64,000 nt of DNA from Candidatus Onthomorpha sp. (lineage in GTDB: Bacteria > Bacteroidota > Bacteroidia > Bacteroidales > P3): positions 57,970 to 121,969 of the forward strand of contig JAZNQE010000025.1 of assembly GCA_045590015.1 (NCBI GenBank). The letters are read 5' to 3'. The position numbers and the translations under genes are program-made. Below, piece after piece: positions 417 to 54,282 of this stretch. How positions within the stretch are numbered: the first letter of the stretch is position 1; each line of letters starts with the position of its first letter. Under the pieces are notes generated by a model. It searched no databases. It worked only from the letters and a program-made list of their open reading frames with translations, and was not told the origin of the DNA.

Positions 417-519
417 TTTCTTGAAATCCCGAAAATAACTCTTTATTTCATTTTTCTGAAATCAAGTTTCGCTCGAACGAAATCAAGAAACAATTTACTG
501 AAATAAAGAATTATTTTTG
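413..519. repeat. 21-bp repeat family, locus 1 (2 forward + 3 reverse units, near-palindromic)
   Basis: TTGTTTCTTGAAATC ... CTGAAATCAAG ... GAAATCAAGAAACAA ... CTGAAATAAAGAATT. Confidence 0.7.
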
Positions 520-3540: not shown

Positions 3541-3622
3541 AAAACGAATCTTTGTTTGAGCAAATTCTTTCTTTGTTTTATTTTCCTGAAATCAAGAAAC
3601 AGAAAATTGTTTCTTTGATTAG
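3541..3622. repeat. 21-bp repeat family, locus 2
   Basis: CGAATCTTTGTTTGAG, AATTCTTTCTTTGTTTTA, CTGAAATCAAGAAACAG, AATTGTTTCTTTGATTAG. Confidence 0.7.
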
Positions 3623-20617: not shown

Positions 20618-20722
20618 ACAGCGATTTTTCTTTCTTTGTTTTGGTAAAATGTTTCTTTGTTTCAGGAAATTGTTTCTTGATTTCAGCGGATTGTTTCTTT
20701 GTTTCATAAAATTCTGATTTGC
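20618..20722. repeat. 21-bp repeat family, locus 3 (4-5 head-to-tail units)
   Basis: TAAAATGTTTCTTTGTTTCAG GAAATTGTTTCTTGATTTCAG CGGATTGTTTCTTTGTTTCAT. Confidence 0.85.
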
Positions 20723-27868: not shown

Positions 27869-27964
27869 CGATATTTGAATCCAGAAAACTCTTTCTTGAT
27901 TTCAGAAAAATAAAACAAAGAATCAGCAAATTGTTTCTTTGTTTCAGTAAATTAAAACAAGGAG
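27869..27964. repeat. 21-bp repeat family, locus 5
   Basis: AAAACTCTTTCTTGATTTCAG AAAAATAAAACAAAGAATCAG CAAATTGTTTCTTTGTTTCAG. Confidence 0.8.
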
Positions 27965-32167: not shown

Positions 32168-32302
32168 AAAATGTTTTTGTTTGACAACAAACGACAAACA
32201 GCAGACAACTGATTATTAAAACAAAGATTCAGAAAAATAATTCTTGATTTCGTTCGACTGATTCTTGATTTTATTTTTCTAAAACAAAGAAAGAAAAAAA
32301 CG
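32168..32302. repeat. 21-bp repeat family, locus 6
   Basis: AAAACAAAGATTCAG AAAAATAATTCTTGATTTCGT TCGACTGATTCTTGATTTTAT ... AAAACAAAGAAAGAA. Confidence 0.8.
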
Positions 32303-35419: not shown

Positions 35420-35532
35420 AATCCAAGAAAGACAAAGAAAAGTTTACCGAAAACAAAACAAAGATTCAGAAAAATGATTCTTGATTTCAGGAAATTAAAA
35501 CAAAGATTCGGAAAATTGTTTCTTGATTTCGT
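35420..35532. repeat. 21-bp repeat family, locus 7 (alternating reverse/forward units)
   Basis: AAAACAAAGATTCAG AAAAATGATTCTTGATTTCAG GAAATTAAAACAAAGATTCGG AAAATTGTTTCTTGATTTCGT. Confidence 0.85.
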
Positions 35533-35599
35533 CAAAAGGGGTATTTACGCCGATTCAACGGACTGAAACCGTGTTTTGCGTATGCAGGCAATTCAAAAT

Positions 35600-41780: not shown

Positions 41781-44483
41781 TTATATGTTCCGCAATGCTT
41801 TGACCAAAGTAGAGAAAACTTCTCCTCTATGTTCGAAATTGCGGAACATATCATAACTGCTGGCTGCCGGAGAGAGCAAACAAATCTTTCCTTTCTCAGT
41901 ATTTTCTGCACACCATTTCACAATAGCCTCGTAATCATCACAAACAAAGGCATTGTAATCAAGTCCTGATTCACTCAAGATTTCGTTCATTCTCTTGCCT
42001 GCCTGACCTACAAAAACAATGTTCTGAACAGAAAAGCGTTTTAGTTCTTTTGCAAGAATGCTATAGTCGATTCCACGATCTTTTCCTCCAAGAATAAGAG
42101 TCTGAACATCTTTCAATGCTTCCAGTGCTGCAATTGTCGCTTCAGGAATAGTACTTATGCTATCGTTGTAATAACTTACTCCATCAATTACCCCAATCGG
42201 TTGAAGTCTGTGTGCCAAAGGCTCGAAGTTTATCATACTTTCAATTGCCTTTTCTTTATCCAATCCCAATATCTCAACAACTTTCATTGCCGCAACCGCA
42301 TTCGATTTGTTATGTTCACCTTTCAAATATTTCAATTCGGGGTAATGATACCCTTCCTTTACGAATCCTATAAGCGTAGAGGGCAAATCATTGGCTTGAA
42401 TCAGGTTTTGTATTCTCTTGTCATCAGAATCAAACACAAAATAATCCGACTCGCTTTGTTTGCTTGCAAGATTGAATTTTGCGCTCCAATATTCTGCACA
42501 ATCACCAAAATGATCCAAATGTTCCTCATAAAGATTCAATAAAACGGATATATGAGGCGACCGTTTGATAAATTGCAATTGATGAGCTGACATTTCGGCA
42601 ACGATTATCGTATCTTTGTTTATCGAATCTATTGTCTCGAAAAGTGGCACACCTATATTACCTGCAAAGACCACATTCGGAGTTTGATCTTTTATTATCT
42701 TATAAATCAAACTACTTGTGGTACTCTTGCCTTTTGTTCCGCTTACTGCGATCGTCTGAGAGGCAAAAAGTTGAAGAAAAATATCGCTTTGAGATGTGAT
42801 TTTATCCTTCGGAACAAACGGAATATTCTTATAAGGTATTCCCGGGGCTTTTATGAATAGCGTTCTATCATTCAGATTATCAACACCAAGCAAACAGTAT
42901 TCTAAATCTTGAAAAGATTTTTTTGTTTCTTTGTTTTGAGAAATTGTTTCTTGATTTCGCAAAATCAGTTCTTTGTTTCCGTCAGCAACCACAAGAGAAC
43001 AATCTGCTCCGATTCGTTCAAGCAGTTTCACAGTTGAGATTCCCTCTCTTCCATATCCCAACACAGCAACTTTCTCCGAAGCAAACATACGTTTTAATTC
43101 AGCCTTGACAATGGCAGCGTATGAATCGGCAAAGATCTCGAAGTCTCTTGGCAAAAGGTTATGCTGATTTTGCAAGGTGAACAAATTATGCGAGTCGGTC
43201 ATATCAAGACAAGATTGAGAAAACGGAAGTTGTAACCACTCTTTCAACAGTATTTCTTTTTCAGAACCAGCCTCTCGTTTTATTCTCATCGCAATCGCCA
43301 TATTTACCTCATCGATAGTCCCTACGCATTCGAAAGGCTTTTGCTCTCCAACCCCACACAATTCAAACAAATAGTCTTTCAGATTTTCGTCTTCAAAGAG
43401 ATTCTTTCCGAATACTTCTGACAATAGTTTCGTTTCAACAAATGGAGACAAGATAATAAAGGCAAAAAGACACTTAGGGCAGTTCCCACACCATATATCT
43501 TGTTTTGAACCTGCGTTACAGCTTTTGAAAACGTGATGATATTTTAATTCGGAAAATAATTTCGCTATATGCAGTTCTGATAACGGGCGAAGGAAACTGA
43601 AATAGTTAAAGTCTGTTGATATGTATTTTGCAACGTATGAGCGGAAATCATTTTCAAATTCAAGGCTTTTTGAATATTGATGATTGATTTTTTCTCCCTT
43701 TACGGTAGATTCGTTTGCTGAACTTTCATTTGAAAGAGCTATGTGTTTGCGTTTTGAAAAGGCTGCTGTTAAAAGACTTGTAAATGCCAACATCGCAGAA
43801 AAAGGCGTATGTCCATTCAAATATCCTTCGGCGTTTAACTCCAATAAATGAGAGTCTATCGTTCTTCTGTCTTCTAAAATTTCATCTCTCTGAATCTTTG
43901 CTTGCTTACAACAATCCAAAGTCGCTCCTCTCGGATTTATTATAAACGTTCTGACATCTCTTCCTGCTCCATAAAGCAAATCAAGGCTCACAACAGAATC
44001 CTTACCTCCCCCGATCGGAACAATGTATTTGTCTTCCAGATCGAATGCACAAGGTTGCAATTCTTTATCTGTATCGAATGCGAAATTAACAAAACTATTT
44101 ATATCTGTTTTTATGCCGTTTATGAAAAAGAATTCACCCAATCCATAGAAGTAAATCTTTCTCCAAAATGCCAATTGTTCACTATCAAGTTTGTAATCGT
44201 GTATCAGAATAGTAGGAGAACAGAACGCTTTCCAATAACTCACCAATTCTATCATTCCGATATTGAAAACAAGTAAATCCAATTGTGCTTTCGATAGATG
44301 ATTGAACGAATAAAATTCTTTGGCCTTGAATGTATGAGTTGGAGTAAAAGAATGGTTCCTACAATAAAAGTGAAATTTCAGTACAAAATCACCTTCTACG
44401 ATATCATATTCAAATCCCCTGTATTCAAAGCAAGGATAACTTTCTCTCAATTGATTATATTTTTCTTGATTTTTCACATTCAT
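41781..44483 (-). CDS. bifunctional fusion: N-terminal PP-loop-type ATP-utilising domain (MurL-like candidate) + C-terminal MurD-type UDP-MurNAc-L-Ala:glutamate ligase
   Basis: The N-part (aa 1-465) has YIVPIGGGKDSVVSL and a CNAGSKQDIWCGNCPKC Cys cluster. The C-part starts at internal Met466 (MFASEKVAVLGYG) with SGTKGKST, NDSISTIPEA, LGGKDRG and LLSPAASSYDMFRNFEHRG. Confidence 0.6.
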   Translation of the reverse strand: MNVKNQEKYNQLRESYPCFEYRGFEYDIVEGDFVLKFHFYCRNHSFTPTHTFKAKEFYSFNHLSKAQLDLLVFNIGMIELVSYWKAFCSPTILIHDYKLDSEQLAFWRKIYFYGLGEFFFINGIKTDINSFVNFAFDTDKELQPCAFDLEDKYIVPIGGGKDSVVSLDLLYGAGRDVRTFIINPRGATLDCCKQAKIQRDEILEDRRTIDSHLLELNAEGYLNGHTPFSAMLAFTSLLTAAFSKRKHIALSNESSANESTVKGEKINHQYSKSLEFENDFRSYVAKYISTDFNYFSFLRPLSELHIAKLFSELKYHHVFKSCNAGSKQDIWCGNCPKCLFAFIILSPFVETKLLSEVFGKNLFEDENLKDYLFELCGVGEQKPFECVGTIDEVNMAIAMRIKREAGSEKEILLKEWLQLPFSQSCLDMTDSHNLFTLQNQHNLLPRDFEIFADSYAAIVKAELKRMFASEKVAVLGYGREGISTVKLLERIGADCSLVVADGNKELILRNQETISQNKETKKSFQDLEYCLLGVDNLNDRTLFIKAPGIPYKNIPFVPKDKITSQSDIFLQLFASQTIAVSGTKGKSTTSSLIYKIIKDQTPNVVFAGNIGVPLFETIDSINKDTIIVAEMSAHQLQFIKRSPHISVLLNLYEEHLDHFGDCAEYWSAKFNLASKQSESDYFVFDSDDKRIQNLIQANDLPSTLIGFVKEGYHYPELKYLKGEHNKSNAVAAMKVVEILGLDKEKAIESMINFEPLAHRLQPIGVIDGVSYYNDSISTIPEATIAALEALKDVQTLILGGKDRGIDYSILAKELKRFSVQNIVFVGQAGKRMNEILSESGLDYNAFVCDDYEAIVKWCAENTEKGKICLLSPAASSYDMFRNFEHRGEVFSTLVKALRNI
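42915..42982. repeat. 21-bp repeat family, locus 9 (inside CDS 41781..44483, in frame)
   Basis: TTTTTGTTTCTTTGTTTTGAG AAATTGTTTCTTGATTTCGC AAAATCAGTTCTTTGTTTCCGT. Confidence 0.8.
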
Positions 44484-46984: not shown

Positions 46985-47125
46985 CTTATTTCTTAAATCA
47001 ATCTACTGAAACTTTATATGGATAAAATAATTCTTGATTTCAGTATTACTGATTCTTGATTCTAATTTTTCCTTTCTTGATTTTGACGAAATGATTCTTG
47101 ATATCACTTCTTTATTTCTTCGATT
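46985..47125. repeat. 21-bp repeat family, locus 10 (4-5 forward units)
   Basis: AAAATAATTCTTGATTTCAG TATTACTGATTCTTGATTCTAA TTTTTCCTTTCTTGATTTTGAC GAAATGATTCTTGATATCAC. Confidence 0.8.
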
Positions 47126-52184: not shown

Positions 52185-53018
52185 ATGAACAATCTTATAC
52201 GTTTTTTACAAAAATATTATTACATCTTCTTGTTTCTGATACTCGAAGGTTTTGCGGTGTATTTCATTTCCTGCAATTCGTTTTATCAAGGCTCTGCAAT
52301 AACGAGCTTCGCCAATAGTGTTGCCGGTGGAGTTTATGGAGGGGTTGATGCAGTATCAAAATATTTTTCGCTTGCTTCTGTCAACGAAGAATTGGTAAAG
52401 GAAAACGCAAGACTCCGAGAACAAATCGAATCATCTTATGTGCGTTATACCGACAGGGTGATGATAAAAGATGATACGATTTACAAACAACAATTCTCTT
52501 TTGTTGAAGCCAAAGTCATATCAAAATCAATTAATAAACGCAACAATTATTTCATGCTCAACAAGGGGCTCTCGAGCGGAATCTTGAAAGATATGAGTGT
52601 GATAGCACCAAACGGTATAGTTGGAGTAGTTGTAAACAGTACAGAGAATTTTTCTCTTGTCATGACCGTTCTGCACCAAGACAGCAAGATTGCGGTAAAG
52701 AACAAAAGAACCAGTGCAAGCGGCACTCTTGTATGGAATGGAGGGAATTATGCAACTGGACAAGTTATCGACATTCCTTCATCTATGCCTCTTAAAGTCG
52801 GAGACACAATAACGACAAGCGGCTTTTCAAGAAATTTCCCTGAAGGAATCGAAGTCGGATACATAAAGAAATTCAGCAAAGATAGCGGAAGTGGTTTTTA
52901 CAATGTGGAAATAAAATACAGCACCGACTACAATAAATTAGGATATGTTTATGTGGTGAAGAACTTCTTTAAGTTGGAACAAGAGCAATTGGAAAGGGGG
53001 ATAAAGGAAGATGAGTAA
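52185..53018 (+). CDS. mreC: rod shape-determining protein MreC
   Basis: N-terminal TM, coiled coil (LVKENARLREQIE) and beta-barrel domains (NGIVGVV, SGTLVWNG, GDTITTSG). Start follows a TAatTTTG box. Confidence 0.8.
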   Translation: MNNLIRFLQKYYYIFLFLILEGFAVYFISCNSFYQGSAITSFANSVAGGVYGGVDAVSKYFSLASVNEELVKENARLREQIESSYVRYTDRVMIKDDTIYKQQFSFVEAKVISKSINKRNNYFMLNKGLSSGILKDMSVIAPNGIVGVVVNSTENFSLVMTVLHQDSKIAVKNKRTSASGTLVWNGGNYATGQVIDIPSSMPLKVGDTITTSGFSRNFPEGIEVGYIKKFSKDSGSGFYNVEIKYSTDYNKLGYVYVVKNFFKLEQEQLERGIKEDE

Positions 53019-53526
53019 AAGCATATTACTGACAGCTTTGAGATTTATTTTATTGCTAACAGTTCAAGTATTGATACTGAACAATATCAATTTGTTTGGA
53101 TTGGTTGAACCGTTATTATATGTATGGTTTATTTTGTTGTTACCTCTCCGCACACCTAAATGGGCGGTTTTATTGTTATCGTTTCTAATGGGATTCTGTG
53201 TTGATATTTTCAGCGGACAAGTAGGTTTTCATACAGCGGTCAGTGTGTTTACGGGATTCATCCGTCCTTTGTTTCTTGGTGCTTTGCTGACAAACTCTCA
53301 CAATGAAGCGCACGACACTCCTACATCTGCAAACATGGGCTTTATGCCTTATTTCGGTTACGTATCAATCCTTATGATTATCCACACATTTACCCTTATT
53401 GCGATAGAGTCTTTGCGTTGGAGCGAAATACTTCAATATCTTCTTCGTTCGAGTTTGAGTTCGCTTGCAGGCATAGTGCTTATACTTATCTGCGATATGG
53501 TTTTCTTCCCTTCATCGAAAAATTAA
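53011..53526 (+). CDS. mreD: rod shape-determining protein MreD
   Basis: 171-aa polytopic membrane protein overlapping the mreC stop by 8 nt, the usual mreCD arrangement. Confidence 0.7.
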   Translation: MSKSILLTALRFILLLTVQVLILNNINLFGLVEPLLYVWFILLLPLRTPKWAVLLLSFLMGFCVDIFSGQVGFHTAVSVFTGFIRPLFLGALLTNSHNEAHDTPTSANMGFMPYFGYVSILMIIHTFTLIAIESLRWSEILQYLLRSSLSSLAGIVLILICDMVFFPSSKN

Positions 53527-53617
53527 CACAACTATAAGACAATAAGACTACAAGACAACGAGATAGTTGTCATTTTATAGTCTTATGGACTTGTTCTCTT
53601 TCAGACTCCTTGACCCC

Positions 53618-53697
53618 GAGTCTTTGTTTTAGAAAACTGATTCTTGATTTCGGCAGATTATTTCTTGATTTCGATAGAGCGATTCTTTGTTTTATTT
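53618..53697. repeat. 21-bp repeat family, locus 11
   Basis: GAGTCTTTGTTTTAG AAAACTGATTCTTGATTTCGG CAGATTATTTCTTGATTTCGA TAGAGCGATTCTTTGTTTTAT. Confidence 0.85.
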
Positions 53698-53720
53698 TCA
53701 CAAAACGCCATTTCGAAAAT

Positions 53721-53829
53721 ATTACGAAGTTTTCGTAATATTATTTCGAAGCCTTCGTAATCCGATTACGACAAACTCGTAATACTATTACGACAGTTTC
53801 GTAATACCATTACGAAGCCTTCGTAAAAT
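53721..53829. repeat. 5 x 22-bp tandem array, each unit a 19-bp palindrome ATTACGAAG-N-CTTCGTAAT
   Basis: Units start at 53721, 53743, 53765, 53787 and 53809, an exact 22-bp phase. Sequences: ATTACGAAGTTTTCGTAAT, ATTTCGAAGCCTTCGTAAT, ATTACGACAAACTCGTAAT, ATTACGACAGTTTCGTAAT, ATTACGAAGCCTTCGTAAA. A related ATTTCGAAAAT lies at about 53710. Confidence 0.9.
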
Positions 53830-53981
53830 AATTATCAAGCCGTTGATTTTTTTTGATACAAAGAAAAACGCAGTTGCAAACGCCTTTATCTATCTTGCAA
53901 AGGCTTGTTTGGTTTTGCGGAAAGTAGGAAAATCATTATCTTTTCTTATTAAAGTATAACAATAACTCTTAGAAAAGAATT

Positions 53982-54210
53982 ATGAAAATCACGATACGAT
54001 ATAATGAAATCGCGGACTTTGTCGAGAAAAAGCTTAAAAGAAAGGCTTAATTTCGTCGGTATAGATTCCAAAACCTTTGAGACAACTTATAAATCCAGCA
54101 TTTTCCATCGATAGGAATAAGGTTAAGAGTTGAGCAGAGGGAGAATAATTCGCTTGGAAGAGGTTCATTTCGACACAGAAACACTTAATGTAATTGCAGG
54201 AATAAAATAA
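53982..54210 (+). pseudogene. remnant of a small ORF broken by a frameshift and stop codons
   Basis: MKITIRYNEIADFVEKKLKRKA(stop) continues in another frame as NFVGIDSKTFETTYKSSIFHR(stop), then ELSRGRIIRLEEVHFDTETLNVIAGIK. No intact ORF of 60 aa or more here. Confidence 0.3.
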
Positions 54211-54227
54211 GCAACTGCTGAAAACAG

Positions 54228-54269
54228 AAACAAACGCCGATATACTTTGTGCATATCGGCGTTTGTTTT
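54228..54269. terminator. bidirectional terminator (16-bp perfect stem)
   Basis: AAACAAACGCCGATAT-actttgtgc-ATATCGGCGTTTGTTT, 14 nt beyond the stop of the 368-aa membrane protein gene. Confidence 0.8.
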
Positions 54270-54282
54270 ACTTAACAATTGC

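Follow-up and report, generated by a model that had tools for sequence, protein, structure and literature searches.

A phased palindrome array behind mreD in Candidatus Onthomorpha may be an orphan copy of a dispersed family of 22-bp dyad arrays linked to DUF6078 genes

The BrickBuilt element of Porphyromonas gingivalis, which is a MITE (a transposable element of the miniature inverted-repeat type), consists of a leader, tandem 23-nt repeats and a tail, lies in intergenic DNA and is present in 19 copies per genome (Klein et al., 2015; PMC4596501). Its 1–23 units are direct repeats and it carries IS5-like terminal inverted repeats (PMC4596501). By architecture, BrickBuilt is the closest described element to the array analyzed here, which comprises five palindromic units at a 22-bp period and lies behind mreD in a 64,000-nt stretch of a Candidatus Onthomorpha sp. 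genome (contig JAZNQE010000025.1, positions 57,970 to 121,969; this whole stretch is called the window, and position 1 is its first letter). Both elements occur in Bacteroidales, are built of short tandem units without spacers (23 nt versus 22 nt here), have a leader and a tail, and are intergenic, multicopy and restricted to a narrow lineage. Unlike those of BrickBuilt, the units described here are dyads, the arrays hold 3–7 of them, few copies were detected, and no terminal inverted repeats or target-site duplications were established. A further difference is a link to a gene family, DUF6078, which is not reported for BrickBuilt. We propose, with about even confidence, that the window array is an orphan or secondary copy from a dispersed family of 22-bp dyad arrays whose prototype lies beside DUF6078 genes, and that these arrays are double-stranded DNA sites most likely bound by DUF6078.

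Three further kinds of system have in common with the arrays the logic of a small protein gene beside repeats that co-vary with it, but in each case at least one of the defining features tested for did not hold. Repetitive extragenic palindromic (REP) sequences and bacterial interspersed mosaic elements (BIMEs), with their REP-associated tyrosine transposases (RAYTs), are likewise dispersed extragenic palindromes that form clusters of alternating orientation, and a repeat-flanked small protein gene co-varies with the class of their sequence. In contrast to RAYTs, DUF6078 lacks HUH/Y1 motifs and has no significant similarity to the TnpA of IS200/IS605. The repeats differ as well: here they stand on one side of the gene only, as 19-nt units at a strict 22-bp period compared with ~35 nt for REPs, without a GTAG head, and few copies were detected with a strict pattern, against tens to hundreds per genome for REP/BIME elements. 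Operator and centromere arrays such as parC/ParR, sopC/SopB, the omega heptads, MetJ boxes and lambda cosB/Nu1 also consist of multiple short, helix-phased sites, direct or inverted, that adjoin the gene of a small binding protein and co-evolve with it. However, our arrays have no partner ATPase, terminase or par operon, the fold of DUF6078 is unrecognised, orphan arrays lie on the chromosome, and binding is a prediction. In type III toxin-antitoxin systems (toxIN, cptIN, tenpIN, abiQ), 2–6 short lineage-specific repeats again lie beside the gene of a ~140–170-aa protein, often in defence islands. Their antitoxin repeats measure ~34–46 nt, are non-palindromic, are always located upstream, separated from the toxin gene by a terminator, and function as RNA (pseudoknots). 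In contrast, the units studied here are 22-nt dyads that stand on either side of the gene, and no RNA-type signal is seen in their substitutions. DUF6078 shows no similarity to ToxN/AbiQ-type toxins in PADLOC, Pfam or PDB, and no protein gene adjoins the window array.

The window reads ...CACAAAACGCCATTTCGAAAAT, then five 19-nt units each followed by 3 nt, then ATTATCAAGCCGTTGATTTTTTTTGATAC (53700–53870). All units follow the pattern ATTWCGA-N5-TCGWAAT and start exactly 22 bp apart (Table 1). An earlier note on this DNA had pointed out this phasing, and both a pattern search and Tandem Repeats Finder (53720–53826, period 22, 4.9 copies, 76% matches, score 112) bore it out. When ≤2 mismatches to ATTACGA-N5-TCGTAAT were allowed, five matches were found, all in the array, against 0.30 expected, and none of 100 shuffles reached five. 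The 7-bp arms are perfect in units 1, 3 and 4, and units 2 and 5 have one mismatch each; the longer 9-N-9 form ATTACGAAG-N-CTTCGTAAT is approached by units 2 and 5 only. The related sequence ATTTCGAAAAT noticed just upstream is indeed present (53710–53720), and the array does abut the 21-bp repeats named repeat locus 11. A second register of the units, TCGWAAT-N3-ATTWCGA, reads equally well. Because the two registers are equivalent, the array is best described as ten heptads in alternating orientation whose starts are 12 and 10 bp apart in turn. We considered a CRISPR array and rejected it, as the units are only 3 nt apart and have no unique spacers. All nine strain contigs that encode an identical MreD carry five units, so that variation in unit number among strains, which the earlier note had proposed to check, was not seen.

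We wondered whether any gene accompanies such arrays. Linkage and copy counts given here refer to the loci examined (L numbers). Three loci with ATTWCGA arrays (L012, L016 and L018) each have a 139-aa gene of the Pfam family DUF6078 (PF19555), with 53 nt between the end of the array and the start codon downstream of it. More broadly, a 22-bp-period array of inverted 5–7-nt arms lies ≤~150 bp from the gene in 12 of the 15 DUF6078 lineages examined. As a control, 83 kb of unselected DNA were found to hold no array except the window one. The arms change with the protein. Compared with P0071, the DUF6078 protein linked to the array type of the window, the protein at L049/50 is 64% identical and has four units with arms ATTACAATC/GATTGTAAG; L051 (52%) has six units with ATTACCA/TGGTAAT, L055/56 (50%) about five with ATTATCA/TGATAAT, L057 (48%) five with GAAACA/TGTTTC, and L058 (52%) 4.8 with ATTATCAC/GTGATAAT. 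L055/56 and L051 are syntenic, orthologous loci, and the same C-to-T and G-to-A change distinguishes every half-site of one from that of the other. What stays constant is the geometry. At these loci (L049/50, L051, L055/56, L057 and L058) the period is 22 bp, occasionally 23, and is kept although arms, loops and spacers differ in length; an additional A/T-rich spacer of ~10 nt divides both the first unit and the last. The 12/10/22 spacing of the window array is also found in L016, L049, L051, L055, L057, L058, L060 and L063, and a pentamer-N7-pentamer arrangement is conserved while the pentamer itself varies by lineage (TTACG, TTATC, TTACC, TTACA or GTTTC).

The association extends to distant DUF6078 homologues from Parabacteroides distasonis, Treponema saccharophilum and faecal contigs labelled 'Bacteriophage sp.' (24–32% identity, all above the Pfam threshold). 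Here the 22-bp arrays lie directly downstream of the stop codon, as in L063 with six copies of GTTTCA-N5-TGAAAC and in P. distasonis (WP_011966740 locus) at a distance of 12 nt, and in Bacteroides finegoldii two palindromes lie upstream of the DUF6078 gene. Within each of three genomes, linked and unlinked arrays have the same arms: in UBA3389, L018 beside the gene and L017 both show ATTWCGA/TCGWAAT, and the same match holds in JAZNIO01 (L012 versus L011/L013) and JAZORH01 (L016 versus L021). Since arms are uniform within an array yet lineage-specific at a fixed geometry, a sequence-specific trans-acting factor seems to be needed, and DUF6078 is the candidate binder because no other gene shows a consistent link to them. 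The earlier note had suspected a regulator that co-varies with the dyads; DUF6078 fits this expectation in that the arms change with the protein lineage, whereas no gene for a helix-turn-helix, Rep or partition protein was linked. Other neighbours (HU-HIG, AbiH, WD40 lipoproteins and restriction-modification genes) were rejected as binders as they were inconsistently linked to arrays. Defence or mobile genes are often found near DUF6078: AbiH, hsdR, RhuM, the BT4734 family and SLFN/AlbA_2. We also observed tandem repeats of ~170–175 bp beside an HU-HIG (PF18291) gene (L016 3979–4350, L012 1364–1689) and, in L016 and L018, a 2.8-kb island with an AbiH-like gene inserted between the HU-HIG region and the DUF6078 array. 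No description of a DUF6078 gene paired with a repeat array was found in the searchable literature, and searches for DUF6078/PF19555, for RefSeq protein accessions and for the unit sequence returned no relevant paper.

The 22-bp period, for which the earlier note had drawn a likeness to iterons, also raises the question of whether the array serves an integrated element of plasmid or phage kind as a centromere or replication origin. Such a period is classical for iterons, including those of R6K, pPS10 and RK2. An array beside a small-protein gene resembles parC/ParR and sopC/SopB, and some DUF6078 loci lie on records labelled plasmid or phage. However, no Rep, ParA or ParM gene lies beside any array or DUF6078 gene examined, the units are dyads and not direct repeats, and scans of viral contigs found no family member. 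The window copy is flanked by mreD and by a convergent gene for a membrane protein, and several arrays per chromosome are placed among housekeeping genes; these chromosomal, multi-locus contexts argue against iterons or a centromere, which we consider highly improbable.

How might the arrays work? We favor double-stranded DNA recognition sites in which short arms of alternating orientation stand 12 and 10 bp apart. As the dyad recurs every two helical turns, bound dimers would be aligned on one face of the helix, and the bound protein would be DUF6078 itself. At genes of the close DUF6078 subfamily the array adjoins the core promoter, so that a protein bound there would control its own gene. 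The copy in the window was inserted after mreD in this lineage and would serve, at most, as an additional binding site. The sequences themselves show the array with its phasing, its paralogues, its status as an insertion, the association of DUF6078 with arrays of lineage-specific arms and the lack of an RNA-type substitution pattern; protein binding, DUF6078 as the binder and any regulatory consequence are inferred. An array of sites for dimeric proteins, as the earlier note had suggested, is favored by the co-variation of arms and protein, by the conserved phasing and by the absence of an RNA-type substitution signal.

A different explanation is that the arrays function as RNA. The units would then fold as 7-bp hairpins or as one long hairpin, be bound or processed by DUF6078 and resemble the repeat antitoxins of type III systems, the hairpins of CRISPR repeats or a protein sponge, and the window copy would be an orphan RNA array in the 3' untranslated region of mreD. 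Short-repeat arrays beside a small protein gene do resemble toxIN-type loci, DUF6078 genes often lie among defence and mobile genes (see above), and weak, non-significant Foldseek matches relate the protein to ferredoxin-like or RNA recognition motif (RRM)-like folds. Some arrays have, ~55 nt upstream, a conserved promoter-like GCGAGATTTGC from which transcription could run through them, and an array downstream of the gene would share its transcript. With a conserved promoter-like GAGATTTG upstream, some arrays could be transcribed, which may speak for an RNA role. The predicted single-strand fold of the array is strong (z-scores of -6.6 and -5.6). In its best form it is one long hairpin, as the array is also a large palindrome, and not the five consecutive hairpins that the earlier note had expected upon transcription.

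Substitution patterns gave no sign of selection for RNA hairpins. In an alignment of 17 arrays, five-hairpin pairing was found in 83.2% of cells compared with 82.4 ± 0.5% in column shuffles, and pairing in the spacer-centred register, at 91%, is as good as in the loop-centred one. Covariation no better than in shuffles, together with equal pairing of both registers, indicates that the heptads are constrained rather than any one hairpin. Uncompensated A/T flips at arm position 4 or 16 are the most frequent variants. Most paralogous arrays keep the T:T mismatch in the middle of the stem of unit 2 (14 of 17 sequences leave pair 49/61 unpaired). On the gene-sense strand of DUF6078-linked arrays, mismatches comprised 20 G:T, 22 A:C and 73 others, so that wobble pairs were not enriched and most mismatches were transversions. 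Judged by their spacers (ACC/ACT versus GGT/AGT), arrays occur in both orientations relative to the gene. Rfam yielded no match at the gathering score for the window and 14 related loci, and only chance-level microRNA-type matches at the E-value threshold; DUF6078 is not in PADLOC; and a 22-nt palindromic unit contrasts with the longer, pseudoknotted type III repeats. The Bacteroidetes -7 box reads TAnnTTTG. Exact boxes of this kind follow directly after the last unit in L051 and L058, and a near-consensus box lies 20 nt past the array in L016 and L012, which would place these arrays on the promoter rather than in the transcript. Taken together, the data favor double-stranded DNA recognition over RNA hairpins, and a function as RNA appears quite improbable.

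The dyads are not unique to the window but recur in the same species and in relatives. We scanned one genome per species with a strict two-unit pattern; the metagenome-assembled genomes (MAGs) are incomplete. Matches were confined to few MAGs: four loci in Candidatus Onthomorpha sp. JAZNIO01, two in JAZORH01 and two in UBA3389, while an uncultured Prevotella MAG had two loci with diverged TTACGG/CCGTAA arms. A metagenome scan added L024, L028 and L033, and two scans of viral contigs yielded no family member. The copies have in common a leader, CAAACGCCATTTCGAAAAT, and a conserved unit order in which ACA..TGT-type units are enclosed by AAG..CTT-type ones, and one to three ATTATCAC..GTGATAAT units often close them. 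The leader stands at the array start with 0–1 mismatch in L011, L024, L028 and L033 and with three mismatches in L013 and L014. Arrays or pairs of 22-bp period built on TTACGG..CCGTAA-type dyads were also seen in unrelated low-GC contigs (L027 6529–6629; L030 10084–10191; L023 5910, 9474 and 11153); one of them lies beside a LuxR-type response regulator and one occurs three times in a single contig. The TTACGG-N5-CCGTAA pairs of the metagenome scan, some of which neighbour LuxR-type regulators, we treated as unrelated to the family. The 22-bp dyad-array design may be more general than DUF6078.

Dispersal of this kind could also be that of a selfish or neutral mosaic repeat, of the type of the BrickBuilt MITE, which contains a minisatellite, or of REP/BIME clusters, that has no dedicated binder and spreads by transposition in trans or by recombination. 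Its palindromes would be at most incidentally useful, in termination or in mRNA stability after mreD. Several features fit this idea. Copies lie between genes at several loci, whether the flanking genes are convergent, divergent or co-directional; they are joined as mosaics to other shared modules; the array interior is inverted relative to the leader in L024 and L011 compared with L033; close relatives differ in the presence of the array; the window copy is of raised diversity; and leader, tandem repeat of ~22–23 nt and tail correspond to the BrickBuilt architecture (PMC4596501). The ends of L028 and L033 match at 14 of 18 positions, like a terminal inverted repeat. However, this match was rejected as such because it belongs to a terminator hairpin, as one of its arms, and an array-free locus has this hairpin too. 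AAACGCC flanks the window element at 53703 and 53878 and is also part of the conserved leader. In the loci examined, no consistent terminal inverted repeats or target-site duplications were established, no insertion sequence was seen and no transposase or RAYT gene was found. The strict pattern gives only 2–4 loci per MAG and a single array in the 64-kb window. A mosaic repeat moreover leaves unexplained why a 22-bp array with lineage-specific arms accompanies 12 of 15 DUF6078 lineages and why the 12/10/22 geometry survives complete replacement of the arms. We therefore regard it as an unlikely account of the family.

Two of the shared modules deserve description. A ~150-nt module (...CTCGCAAAGTTCGCG...CAAGTCAACAAGAC...GCGAGATTTGC.GAGACGTTTCCGAATGCTTTTCCTTACTCTTGGAA...) is conserved beside arrays (L011 4090–4245, L013 1830–1990, L057 40–120, L058 655–800), at DUF6078 genes and at orphan loci, even where the arms differ, and contains the promoter-like GAGATTTG and a possible hairpin. 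The terminator hairpin AAAACGAGCGTTCGA...TCGAACGCTCGTTTT is a dispersed module as well (L028 1–60, L033 190–240, L028 4860–4900). Array-bearing loci have its right arm only, and the leader AAACGCCATTTCGAAAAT is similar to the left arm that they lack (14 of 18 positions are complementary).

The proposal that the window array is an orphan copy of a DUF6078-bound family rests on the following comparison. The window copy has L018-type arms, the leader, the unit order and the split unit, whose homologue closes the DUF6078-linked arrays L058 and L055. It lacks a DUF6078 gene, and the -7 box after the last unit, exact in L058 and present with one mismatch in L055, is missing. A tblastn search detected no DUF6078 anywhere in the 64-kb window, and the DNA 3' of the array (53878–54227) was rejected as a decayed copy of the gene, given that it has no blastx match, evolves neutrally and is absent from relatives; hence the array is an orphan. 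The leader is invariant (nucleotide diversity pi = 0) in seven strain and ortholog sequences, while pi reaches 0.042 in the array, 0.082 in 53878–54227 and ~0.02 in neighbouring genes. The earlier note's alternative of a local operator found no support at this locus, because convergent genes, the lack of a promoter box and the neutral DNA that follows make such a role at the window unlikely.

Several observations count against our proposal. Three of the 15 DUF6078 lineages have no array (L047/52/53, L054 and L059), and the first two of them keep a remnant only. In distant homologues the array lies downstream of the gene, which does not fit simple autoregulation. Linkage was read from single loci, and array-bearing genomes without DUF6078 may exist. 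Orphan arrays occur in all three intergenic orientations without any consistent target gene. The promoter-like sequences upstream of some arrays and the co-transcription of gene-downstream arrays, mentioned above, belong here too. The protein itself gives little guidance. DUF6078 is a small zinc-type protein of ~140–150 aa (841 clusters at 50% identity) with four invariant cysteines (C15, C20, C26 and C55 in P0071) and conserved basic residues. Its isoelectric point (pI) is ~9 in four of the five array-linked members computed; that of P0071 is 7.6. The AlphaFold2 model is confident for residues 60–139 only, the N-terminal half being of low confidence, and no DNA-binding fold was recognised: Foldseek against PDB and BFVD and a PDB sequence search gave nothing significant, with E-values >5 for the IS608 TnpA. 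PHROGs, NCBIfam and PADLOC also gave nothing significant, and PF19555 was the only Pfam match. Finally, with a pi of 0.042 against ~0.02 in neighbouring coding DNA, the window copy evolves about twice as fast as its surroundings and may therefore be functionless. The copy may act as a secondary binding site or be a relic of duplication that has no function.

The surroundings of the window array point to an insertion. The order of genes is rpsI and rplM on the minus strand, radC on the plus strand, two genes of no known function on the minus strand, and mreC and mreD on the plus strand; after the gap follow a convergent gene for a 365-aa membrane protein, a 138-aa open reading frame and pheT. 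The region after mreD had been described as 750 bp of gene-free, decayed DNA. It is indeed gene-free and measures 756 bp (53527–54282), but decay does not describe it. In UBA3389, a Bacteroidales MAG of the same species, the whole gap is 97% identical (L017, the ortholog of the window locus). In a relative with 81% MreD identity, the gap is 195 bp long and holds 21-bp repeats and a terminator without a dyad array, and in one with 66% MreD identity it is 4 bp. Since the gaps of relatives are this short, the window gap represents a lineage-specific accumulation of inserted DNA and not a decay of the mreCD operon. Only the portion from 53703 to ~53843–53867 is common to other loci. The non-coding DNA that follows it came with the insertion or accumulated after it, and a hairpin homologous to the terminator at the right edge of the gap is found in the array-free relative L039.

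Table 1. Positions of the array, its parts and neighbouring features in the window.
Feature	Position	Strand	Description
21-bp TTCTTGATTTCG repeats (repeat locus 11)	53621–53702	+	Tandem Repeats Finder 53639–53687, period 21
Leader AAACGCCATTTCGAAAAT	53703–53720	+	one additional left half-site TTTCGA at 53711, 11 bp before unit 1
Unit 1	53721–53739	none	ATTACGAAGTTTTCGTAAT, next 3 nt att; 7-bp arms perfect
Unit 2	53743–53761	none	ATTTCGAAGCCTTCGTAAT, next 3 nt ccg; T:T mismatch at arm position 4
Unit 3	53765–53783	none	ATTACGACAAACTCGTAAT, next 3 nt act; 7-bp arms perfect
Unit 4	53787–53805	none	ATTACGACAGTTTCGTAAT, next 3 nt acc; 7-bp arms perfect
Unit 5	53809–53827	none	ATTACGAAGCCTTCGTAAA, next 3 nt ata; A:A mismatch at arm position 1
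Arm starts	53722, 53744, 53766, 53788, 53810 and 53733, 53755, 53777, 53799, 53821		
Terminal split unit	53831–53859	none	ATTATCA, 16-nt T-rich spacer, TGATAC; second arm type
Lineage-specific non-coding DNA	53878–54227	none	matches UBA3389 ortholog L017 only; outside repeat family
Bidirectional terminator hairpin	54228–54268	none	16-bp perfect arms; serves convergent genes; right edge of gap
21-bp family loci in window	469–518, 3560–3600, 20631–20706, 27877–27960, 32228–32285, 35460–35540, 42923–42979, 47031–47119, 53621–53702		

The 21-bp repeats next to the leader belong to a second and far more abundant intergenic family of period 21 bp, with units TTCTTGATTTCAG / AAAACAAAGAATC in alternating orientation that are capable of forming hairpins. 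Its motif is enriched in the window (44 matches versus 15.7 expected). A diverged version, CTCTTCGTTTCAG, was found in Candidatus Onthomorpha (L011) and another in the array-free relative L039. Some copies of the family contain GATTTCG, which resembles the dyad half-site, and the copy beside the array contains the half-site-like ATTTCGG (53646) and ATTTCGA (53667), 44 and 65 bp upstream of the leader half-site, a spacing that approximately matches the phase of the array. Immediately behind the stop codon of mreD, three 8-bp repeats ATAAGACA (53525–53595) have an inverted partner (29-nt arms, 72% complementary); this segment is nearly invariant among strains and may be a structure at the 3' end of the mreD transcript. 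In this lineage and its relatives, mreCD (window 52185–53526; L039–L046) is not followed by mrdA/rodA. The convergent gene for the 365-aa membrane protein that abuts mreD evolves fast (pi 0.065) and matches no Pfam family.

What appears to be new is the pairing of DUF6078 with an array, whereas a cognate repeat array beside the gene of its binding protein is known in kind. More tentatively, and as a possibility that we do not yet regard as probable, DUF6078 and the adjacent 22-bp dyad array might form a previously unrecognised two-part module, common across gut Bacteroidales and extending to Treponema and phage-like contigs, in which a cysteine-rich protein reads lineage-specific arms at the 12/10/22 geometry and orphan arrays are sites that act in trans. 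Such a module could be a new chromosomal binding platform or a module of the defence or mobility type rather than an ordinary operator. For annotation, the 756-bp gap after mreD is inserted repeat DNA and not a lost gene. The pairing gives DUF6078, a family of unknown function, its first concrete and testable clue, and pairs of arm and protein, such as ATTACCA with P0089 versus ATTATCA with P0091, would provide a natural specificity code to test. Cultivable species that carry the family, Parabacteroides distasonis and Bacteroides finegoldii, would permit such tests. Binding by DUF6078 would also offer a reason why phased palindrome arrays are scattered in some Bacteroidales genomes.

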